A stretch of DNA of 32,000 bases. It comes from Candidatus Jordarchaeales archaeon (GTDB lineage Archaea; Asgardarchaeota; Jordiarchaeia; Jordiarchaeales; Freyrarchaeaceae). Each line of letters begins with the position of its first letter. Within the stretch, counting starts at the first letter, position 1. The DNA lies in the NCBI GenBank assembly GCA_038889235.1, contig JAWAHN010000001.1, positions 734,499 through 766,498 of the forward strand, read 5' to 3'. The notes below the pieces were generated by a model that saw nothing but the letters and a program-made list of their open reading frames with translations, was not told the origin of the DNA and did not search any database. The translations under genes and the position numbers were made by a program. Positions 6,745-26,524 of this stretch are shown one piece after another.

Positions 6745-6826
6745 ATCTAAAATTATAACGTGACTGCAAATAAATGCCTGACGCGAAAAATTTGTAAGAG
6801 CATTTTTGAGAAAGTGACACGAAAAA

Positions 6827-6834
6827 TTTAATAA
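6827..6834 (+). promoter_or_regulatory. TATA box of tRNA-Asp gene
   Basis: TTTAATAA preceded by purine-rich CGAAAAA (BRE-like), 26-33 nt upstream of the mature tRNA 5' end. Confidence 0.5.
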
Positions 6835-6859
6835 CCTTTTAAGGTACAGGTTTGCTGTA

Positions 6860-7018
6860 GCCCCGGTGGTGTAGCCACCATAAAGAGGCTGTAACGGCCG
6901 AGCATACGGGACAGTGACAAGCCCCTAATGTCAACGACGGTGGCAGAACTCCCGCGACCCGGGTAGTATATCCATCTGATGGATATACTAGGGATTTCAA
7001 ATCCCGGCCGGGGCGCCA
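6860..7018 (+). tRNA. tRNA-Asp(GUC) with four introns (17/17a, 32/33, 37/38, 53/54)
   Basis: Removing 6877-6894, 6913-6928, 6934-6948 and 6964-6995 gives a 78-nt cloverleaf: GCCCCGGTGGTGTAGCC|CGGCCGAGCATACGGGAC|TGTCA|CTCCCGCGACCCGGG|TTCAAATCCCGGCCGGGGCGCCA. It has a 7-bp acceptor stem, G73, encoded CCA, and the anticodon loop CT-GTC-AC. Each intron forms a BHB or relaxed BHB motif. Confidence 0.88.
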
Positions 7019-7029
7019 CTCCTTTTCTT
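7019..7029 (+). terminator. Pyrimidine/T-rich archaeal terminator after tRNA-Asp
   Basis: CTCCTTTTCTT immediately after CCA; a similar CTTCCTTTTCTC follows tRNA-Glu. Confidence 0.45.
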
Positions 7030-7104: not shown

Positions 7105-7249
7105 GGGCGGGTGGTCTAGAGCGAGAGCCAGCGGAGAACTTGGTATGATTCCCTCTTTGAGGGAGTAAAACCGGGTTTGGGACCCGGAGGCCCTGGGTTC
7201 AATGCTGTGCATGATTTATGCAGGCGAACAAATCCCAGCCCGCCCACCA
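7105..7249 (+). tRNA. tRNA-Pro(UGG) with three introns (15/16, 25/26, 58/59)
   Basis: Removing 7120-7138, 7150-7169 and 7203-7231 gives 77 nt: GGGCGGGTGGTCTAG|CTTGGTATGAT|ACCGGGTTTGGGACCCGGAGGCCCTGGGTTCAA|ATCCCAGCCCGCCCACCA. The anticodon arm CCGGG-TT-TGG-GA-CCCGG is intact. The 58/59 intron has a perfect GTTC/GAAC central helix. The second intron's boundary is chosen by best BHB fit and could shift by a few nt. Confidence 0.88.
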
Positions 7250-23808: not shown

Positions 23809-25589
<1,781 letters not shown>

Positions 25590-26387: not shown

Positions 26388-26524
26388 GCCTCGGTGGTGT
26401 AGCCACCCTATAGGCTGCAACGGCCAAGCATAAGGGGCTCAAGGTTCATAACCTGCCCACTCGACCCCTAGACCCGGGTTAGTCTTTAAGGACTAAGGGA
26501 ATTCAAATCCCGGCCGAGGCACCA
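26388..26524 (+). tRNA. tRNA-Glu(CUC) with three introns (17/17a, 34/35 inside the anticodon, 53/54)
   Basis: Removing 26405-26420, 26441-26460 and 26479-26501 gives 78 nt: GCCTCGGTGGTGTAGCC|CGGCCAAGCATAAGGGGCTC|TCGACCCCTAGACCCGGG|TTCAAATCCCGGCCGAGGCACCA. The 34/35 intron has a perfect GGGC/GCCC central helix and an AGGTT/AACCT inner helix. Confidence 0.9.

Follow-up and report, generated by a model that had tools for sequence, protein, structure and literature searches.

The tRNA genes of the Thermoproteales, whose multiple introns are associated with the names of Sugahara et al. (2007/2008), reportedly have a maximum of three introns per gene.

Genes with four introns have been documented in Asgard archaea by Valentin-Alvarado et al. 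(2024, Nat Commun, PMC11291895), whose Supplementary Data 4 lists Arg-TCT, Ile2-CAT and Leu-GAG in Freyarchaeia, and Trp-CCA and Lys-TTT in Atabeyarchaeia. Between 92 and 95% of the tRNA genes of these two groups bear introns, and introns overlooked by tRNAscan-SE were added by curation (PMC11291895). In October 2026 a preprint by Goswami, Ghosh and Sinha (bioRxiv 10.64898/2026.10.13.758758) reported, in the part drawn on here, up to five intervening sequences per gene in the Freyrarchaeaceae, Jordiarchaeaceae and Atabeyarchaeaceae. About 2.0 intervening sequences per tRNA gene are given for the Jordiarchaeaceae, the focal family, and 1.54 per gene for Pyrobaculum calidifontis. The same part of its Asgard census describes many unannotated inserts in the D-arm, enrichment at bulge-helix-bulge (BHB) boundaries, gains that occurred repeatedly and, in most genomes, a pair of EndA paralogues, and states that none of the inserts has been shown to be spliced. 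A set order of intron removal has been found in the multi-intron pre-tRNAs of Cyanidioschyzon merolae, where RT-PCR of intermediates placed the 37/38 intron last (Soma et al. 2013, PMC3728597).

The gene model and its counterparts in related genomes

The window analysed here, a stretch of DNA of 32,000 nucleotides, contains at 6860-7018 (plus strand) a 159-nt gene that reads as tRNA-Asp(GUC) in five exon pieces with four inserts. It is well supported that the locus is a genuine, conserved aspartate tRNA gene of a Jordarchaeia Asgard archaeon, present in five pieces; the relatives of the source genome are Candidatus Jordarchaeia / Jordarchaeum MAGs. The exons are as follows.

6860-6876, plus strand: exon 1; acceptor 5' strand, U8 G9, D-stem 5' strand and D-loop positions 14-17
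6895-6912, plus strand: exon 2; rest of the D-loop, D-stem 3' strand, A26, anticodon-stem 5' strand and C32; invariant in four species
6929-6933, plus strand: exon 3; 5-nt micro-exon UGUCA, comprising U33, the anticodon G34-U35-C36 and A37
6949-6963, plus strand: exon 4; C38, anticodon-stem 3' strand, 4-nt variable loop and T-stem 5' strand; invariant in four species
6996-7018, plus strand: exon 5; T-loop UUCAAAU, T-stem 3' strand, acceptor 3' strand, G73 and encoded CCA

When the inserts at 6877-6894, 6913-6928, 6934-6948 and 6964-6995 are removed, a 78-nt product results that is called tRNA-Asp(gtc) by ARAGORN. This confirms the initial annotation, which had proposed a 78-nt Asp cloverleaf after excision of 18, 16, 15 and 32 nt, and its count of 81 intron nucleotides out of 159 agrees with the insert lengths. 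In the ARAGORN model the spliced cloverleaf has a 7-bp acceptor stem, G73 and an encoded CCA (75 nt plus CCA), a 4-bp D stem (GUGU/GCAU) with two G-U pairs, a 5-bp anticodon stem (CGGGA/UCCCG) with the loop CUGUCAC, a variable loop of 4 nt and a T arm CCGGG-UUCAAAU-CCCGG with a 5-bp T stem. Compared with intron-free Asgard tRNA-Asp, 70 of 76 aligned positions are identical for locus L009 and 70 of 74 for L012. Exon 1 has a single variable site (C16/U16) among the four species compared below and is otherwise identical, and the 23-nt 3' end formed by exon 5 has the same sequence in tRNA-Asp genes from several other Asgard families.

The insert boundaries can be placed independently of any splicing motif. 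Alignment of the precursor with L009 (1501-1576, minus strand), which is a compact tRNA-Asp of another Asgard family and has no introns, gives insertion blocks of 18, 16, 15 and 32 nt. Furthermore, an orthologue is present in three genomes of the same genus. That of G003 has all four inserts (18/16/15/31 nt), and those of G002 (15/13/33 nt) and G001 (15/14/33 nt) have three, the 37/38 intron being precisely absent from both. Because these two read TGTCA-CTCCCG, with nothing between exon 3 and C38, the third intron is placed at the canonical position 37/38 and C38 belongs to the product. Identity among the four species is 99-100% in the exons, 58-100% in the introns and 60-75% in flanks of 60-80 nt. 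The model of a tRNA-Asp(GUC) gene with four BHB-type introns, at 17/17a, 32/33, 37/38 and 53/54, is right, and it now has comparative support.

The source genome is about equally distant from G001, G002 and G003 (83-84% identity for a 969-aa protein), and two Jordarchaeum species, the source and G003, have the 37/38 intron that is missing from the other two. The intron may have been present in their ancestor and lost later, or it may have been gained once. A donor copy of this intron was not found in a tRNA context elsewhere in the genome with 2 mismatches allowed. The sole match of a metagenome pattern scan was a copy identical to that of G002, and the scan therefore added no diversity. In the sister genus, G004 encodes a four-intron tRNA-Asp as well (C31:3039-3202, 164 nt), with all four motifs at 4/4 central pairs. 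Its introns occupy positions 17/17a and 32/33, a site in the variable loop and position 58/59, and its 79-nt product is accepted by ARAGORN as Asp(gtc). Since 17/17a and 32/33 are shared, two intron positions are common to the family and the others differ.

Introns 1-3 (window 6877-6948) differ from those of G003 (L002) at only 3 of 49 positions; between the same two genomes, identity is 76% in the adjoining, mostly coding DNA, 60-69% in the flanks and 62% in intron 4. This near-identity may mean that such tiny introns are strongly constrained, or that part of the gene was exchanged, and with few free positions it is not clearly significant.

Splicing motifs at the four junctions

The initial annotation had assigned to each insert a BHB geometry with 2+1 nucleotides in either bulge. 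This 2+1 / 2+1 pattern holds at all four junctions and recurs, including both mismatches, in every orthologue. The introns are listed with their motifs.

6877-6894, plus strand: intron 1 (18 nt), D-loop 17/17a; HBh'-type; central helix GUAG/CUGU, 4/4 with two G-U; bulges CC-A and AA-C; h' 2 bp
6913-6928, plus strand: intron 2 (16 nt), 32/33; relaxed BHB; central helix (C)GGG/CCC(U), 3/4 with a C.U mismatch; bulges AC-A and AA-U; h' 2 bp; no outer helix
6934-6948, plus strand: intron 3 (15 nt), canonical 37/38; hBHBh' after loss of intron 2; central helix CUGU/GCAG, 4/4; outer helix is the 5-bp anticodon stem; h' 2 bp
6964-6995, plus strand: intron 4 (32 nt), 53/54; central helix CCC(G)/(A)GGG, 3/4 with a conserved G.A next to the bulge; bulges GG-U and AU-U; outer helix 2 bp; h' is an 11-bp intron hairpin

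The central helix is complete (4/4) for intron 1 and, with intron 2 removed, for intron 3; introns 2 and 4, with 3/4, belong to the relaxed class. Every one of the four introns is flanked by a helix, h or h' or both, of 2 bp or longer. In G001, a G.U pair of intron 1 is replaced by G-C and a U.G by U-A, preserving the central helix, and the counterpart in G004 has 19 nt at the same position. Intron 2 occurs in all four genus members (16/16/13/14 nt) and its G004 version has a 4/4 helix; the central helix of this intron employs the 5' strand of the anticodon stem (G28-G30). Intron 3, which reaches only 3/4 central pairs in the full precursor, is identical in G003 (15/15 nt). The hairpin of intron 4 has 9-11 bp in the four species despite different sequences, with 7 of 11 pairs changed on both sides.

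An equally good motif at fixed boundaries occurs at 0.33% of random genome positions for intron 1, 2.3% for intron 2, 0.004% for intron 3 (0.9% in the unspliced context) and 0.00075% for intron 4. Pairing is found in 96.4% of the cells of alignment A1; with slid partners the figure is 36-47%. The motif fit at the four junctions is far beyond chance. When the precursor and single-intron intermediates were folded for minimum energy, the BHB motifs did not appear, and at introns 1 and 3 the folds have a continuous helix in competition with the 5' bulge. Since even the mature cloverleaf of this GC-rich RNA was not recovered, the folds say little either way.

It could be argued that only three of the inserts are true introns and that the 18-nt D-loop insert is retained in the mature tRNA as an enlarged D-loop. 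The 2026 preprint warns, in the part drawn on here, that some D-arm intervening sequences without a canonical motif may not be introns (bioRxiv 10.64898/2026.10.13.758758); moreover, h' of intron 1 measures only 1-3 bp, and the continuous helix that rivals its 5' bulge in the folds is 6 bp long. However, the central helix of intron 1 is 4/4 in five of the five genes examined, with one-sided changes that keep the pairing, and the motif falls at the exact boundary set by compact relatives, where it would arise by chance at the 0.33% given above. A retained insert would also part positions 17 and 18, displacing G18 G19 from the D-loop geometry. We regard retention of the insert as improbable, and follow the reading with four introns below.

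Putative flanking signals and the only tRNA-Asp found

Two elements flank the gene.

6820-6835, plus strand: putative promoter of archaeal type, with a BRE and the TATA-like TTTAATAA; its centre lies some 30 nt upstream of the 5' end of the mature tRNA
7019-7029, plus strand: pyrimidine/T-rich run immediately behind CCA; all four species have T-rich tracts after the gene

The promoter-like motif CGAAA(A/G)ATTTAATA(A/G)C lies at the same distance in the source genome and in G003 and G002, and G001 has a variant of it that is shifted; elsewhere in the 60 nt of upstream flank, identity is only 60-73%. Its position and the archaeal consensus suggest that it acts as a promoter, and the run at 7019-7029 is likely to be the transcription stop.

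On unspliced DNA, ARAGORN reported no tRNA anywhere in the window, and the Rfam tRNA model matched nothing at the gathering score, nor in a 1.1-kb cut-out with E values of up to 10 allowed. The expectation that standard finders would miss the gene is thus true for ARAGORN and the Rfam tRNA model, and an annotation built on these two would therefore report no Asp decoder. Across the whole genome only 14 tRNAs were recovered by ARAGORN with intron search and 12 above-cut-off matches by the Rfam tRNA model, so the genome as a whole is hard for both.

A second tRNA-Asp was not found in the assembly by ARAGORN, the Rfam model or BLAST of the spliced sequence, nor by a scan for GUC anticodon arms or a whole-genome scan for acceptor stem, T-arm and CCA, whose look-alikes were inspected by hand. 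The initial annotation had named an intact tRNA-Asp(GUC) elsewhere as the mark of a relic; none turned up in this assembly, which is 95% complete. A decaying locus, with the working tRNA-Asp encoded elsewhere, perhaps in the unassembled 5%, is given some room by that figure and by the 8 contigs with some N runs, but it sits badly with exons that are 99-100% identical in four species against 60-75% in the flanks, with conserved promoter-like and T-rich elements, with intron helices preserved through compensatory changes, and with the lack of any other Asp candidate by five search routes. Such decay is very improbable in our view. The locus is in all probability a functional tRNA-Asp(GUC) gene, the sole one found, from whose precursor four endonuclease-type introns would be removed, and it supplies the otherwise missing tRNA-Asp of the genome.

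Some look-alikes were rejected as Asp. C1:666083-666213 and window 26388-26524 look like tRNA-Glu by hand (acceptor GCCUCGG, A73), C2:40552-40643 looks like Thr(GGU) by hand, and C1:1018102-1018311 has no GUC anticodon loop. The Thr(GGU)-like gene (G000 C2:40552-40643, minus strand) has the acceptor of tRNA-Asp (GCCCCGG/CCGGGGC) but U73 and no encoded CCA, and there is an apparent insert directly after its acceptor 5' strand. G000 C1:1018102-1018311 is a 210-nt tRNA-like gene with acceptor GCCCGGG, G73 and CCA, in which CUCGAGA is consistent with a CGA anticodon loop. Other long tRNA candidates in G000 are C1:907829-908038 (210 nt), C1:772863-773032 (170 nt) and C2:433039-433205 (167 nt).

The window itself holds further tRNA genes. 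One lies 86 nt downstream at 7105-7249 (plus strand, 145 nt), with acceptor GGGCGGG/CCCGCCC, A73, CCA and its own conserved TATA-like element ACGTAAATTATTTAAG upstream, and is consistent with the three-intron tRNA-Pro(UGG) called in the initial annotation. Interrupted tRNA genes with encoded CCA are also found at 24212-24362 and 26388-26524 (both plus strand; 151 and 137 nt). In the latter, tRNA-Glu-like gene, inserts at 17/17a and 53/54 resemble those of Asp in position and 3' ends (…CUGCAA, …AAGGGAA), which suggests either that these introns of the Asp and Glu genes share ancestry or that one motif was recruited by the same exon context in both.

Proposed order of splicing and comparison with known systems

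The genome encodes two EndA genes (PF01974), one at C1:1056164-1056754 and one on C3, and an RtcB (599.9 bits). The best PDB match of the 196-aa EndA is the catalytic subunit in the (alpha-beta)2 enzyme of Aeropyrum pernix (3P1Z_B, 4e-47), and the alignment runs gap-free through the crenarchaeal-specific loop, including a Lys that corresponds to K44 of A. pernix. In the 195-aa paralogue, the catalytic position is not occupied by His. Asgard archaea are known to have an EndA of (alpha-beta)2 type bearing the crenarchaeal-specific loop, which gives a broad substrate range (Kaneta et al. 2018, PMC5829648). From these sequences, the enzyme of the source organism would belong to the (alpha-beta)2 type, its catalytic subunit carrying the broad-range loop.

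The gene would be transcribed from its own promoter into a precursor of about 160 nt with four short introns, whose junctions would fold as BHB or relaxed BHB and be cut by the splicing endonuclease, the exons being joined by RtcB after cleavage. In the anticodon arm, bounds other than those used here (e.g. 38/39 not 37/38, giving A38) or joint excision of the two inserts as one unit can be dismissed, since a 38/39 placement, although it likewise yields a 7-nt loop, has only 2/4 central pairs (hand count) and is contradicted by the intron-less orthologues of G001 and G002, which fix 37/38 and C38, and since a joint motif of the intron 2 5' site and the intron 3 3' site also has 2/4 central pairs (hand count) and would delete the anticodon. 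Skipping of the anticodon exon is not favoured either, because of the same low count in the joint motif.

With separate introns at 32/33 and 37/38, the motifs themselves suggest an order. As long as the intron 2 motif is folded, G28-G30 would be in use and the anticodon stem could not form. Removal of intron 2 would join C32 to U33, free the stem and give the 37/38 motif its fourth central pair (C32-G). Removal at 32/33 and then at 37/38 is the most likely order, because intron 2 borrows a stem strand and because both the full helix and the outer helix of intron 3 need C32 and U33 to be joined. The 5-nt anticodon exon would then stay attached throughout, and simultaneous cutting of introns 2 and 3 would leave it held solely through base pairs with an intron already cut out. 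The order would not have to be strict if the enzyme has broad specificity. We give just under even weight to a more specific proposal, in which the exon UGUCA between the 32/33 and 37/38 introns, with the anticodon on its 5 nt, would be the shortest tRNA exon found documented, the second BHB would be completed only by the first ligation and so enforce a two-step order, and the presence and absence of the 37/38 intron would form a natural pair for its gain or precise loss.

Four introns are neither a record nor unusual here, since four- and five-intron genes are reported in the group and several other tRNA candidates in the source genome are longer than the Asp gene. The idea that a four-intron tRNA might exceed what is described is refuted by Valentin-Alvarado et al. 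2024 (PMC11291895) and by the 2026 preprint, and the known maximum of introns per tRNA is not extended by the Asp gene. It is a clean and comparatively validated case of the kind of heavily interrupted tRNA gene that papers of 2024-2026 describe in Asgard archaea.

The Freyarchaeia and Atabeyarchaeia genes (PMC11291895) are similar: they too are tRNA genes of Asgard archaea, interrupted by many short BHB introns of the non-canonical kind, and several of them have four. The source organism, which is Jordarchaeum-like, belongs to another family and genus than those cases. The tRNA-Asp of Freyarchaeia has only two introns and neither Atabeyarchaeia genome has a listed tRNA-Asp (PMC11291895), whereas there are four introns here. 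BLAST with compact Asgard tRNA-Asp found no tRNA-Asp in two complete Atabeyarchaeia genomes (G021 and G031, where the tRNA hits have the coordinates published for Atabeyarchaeia-1 and -2), whose Asp gene may be so interrupted or divergent as to be still unannotated. By coordinate arithmetic on the table of PMC11291895, some exons between introns in these groups are about 7-9 nt; the 5-nt exon is shorter than any so derived, and thus slightly beyond the documented examples. The Asgard census, in the part drawn on here, starts from genes found by tRNAscan-SE and is sequence-based, as is the description of the present gene (bioRxiv 10.64898/2026.10.13.758758).

The Thermoproteales share non-canonical and relaxed BHB introns that are cut by an (alpha-beta)2 EndA with the crenarchaeal-specific loop, but they have fewer introns per gene and belong to a different phylum. 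The pre-tRNAs of C. merolae likewise have several BHB motifs in one precursor and an order with 37/38 last, as proposed here. These are, however, products of a eukaryotic nucleus, with at most three introns and motifs that fold independently, whereas in the Asp precursor the 37/38 motif is incomplete until the neighbouring intron is removed. What the Jordarchaeum gene adds to the known systems is the presence and absence of a canonical intron within one genus, together with a 5-nt anticodon exon that suggests ordered splicing.
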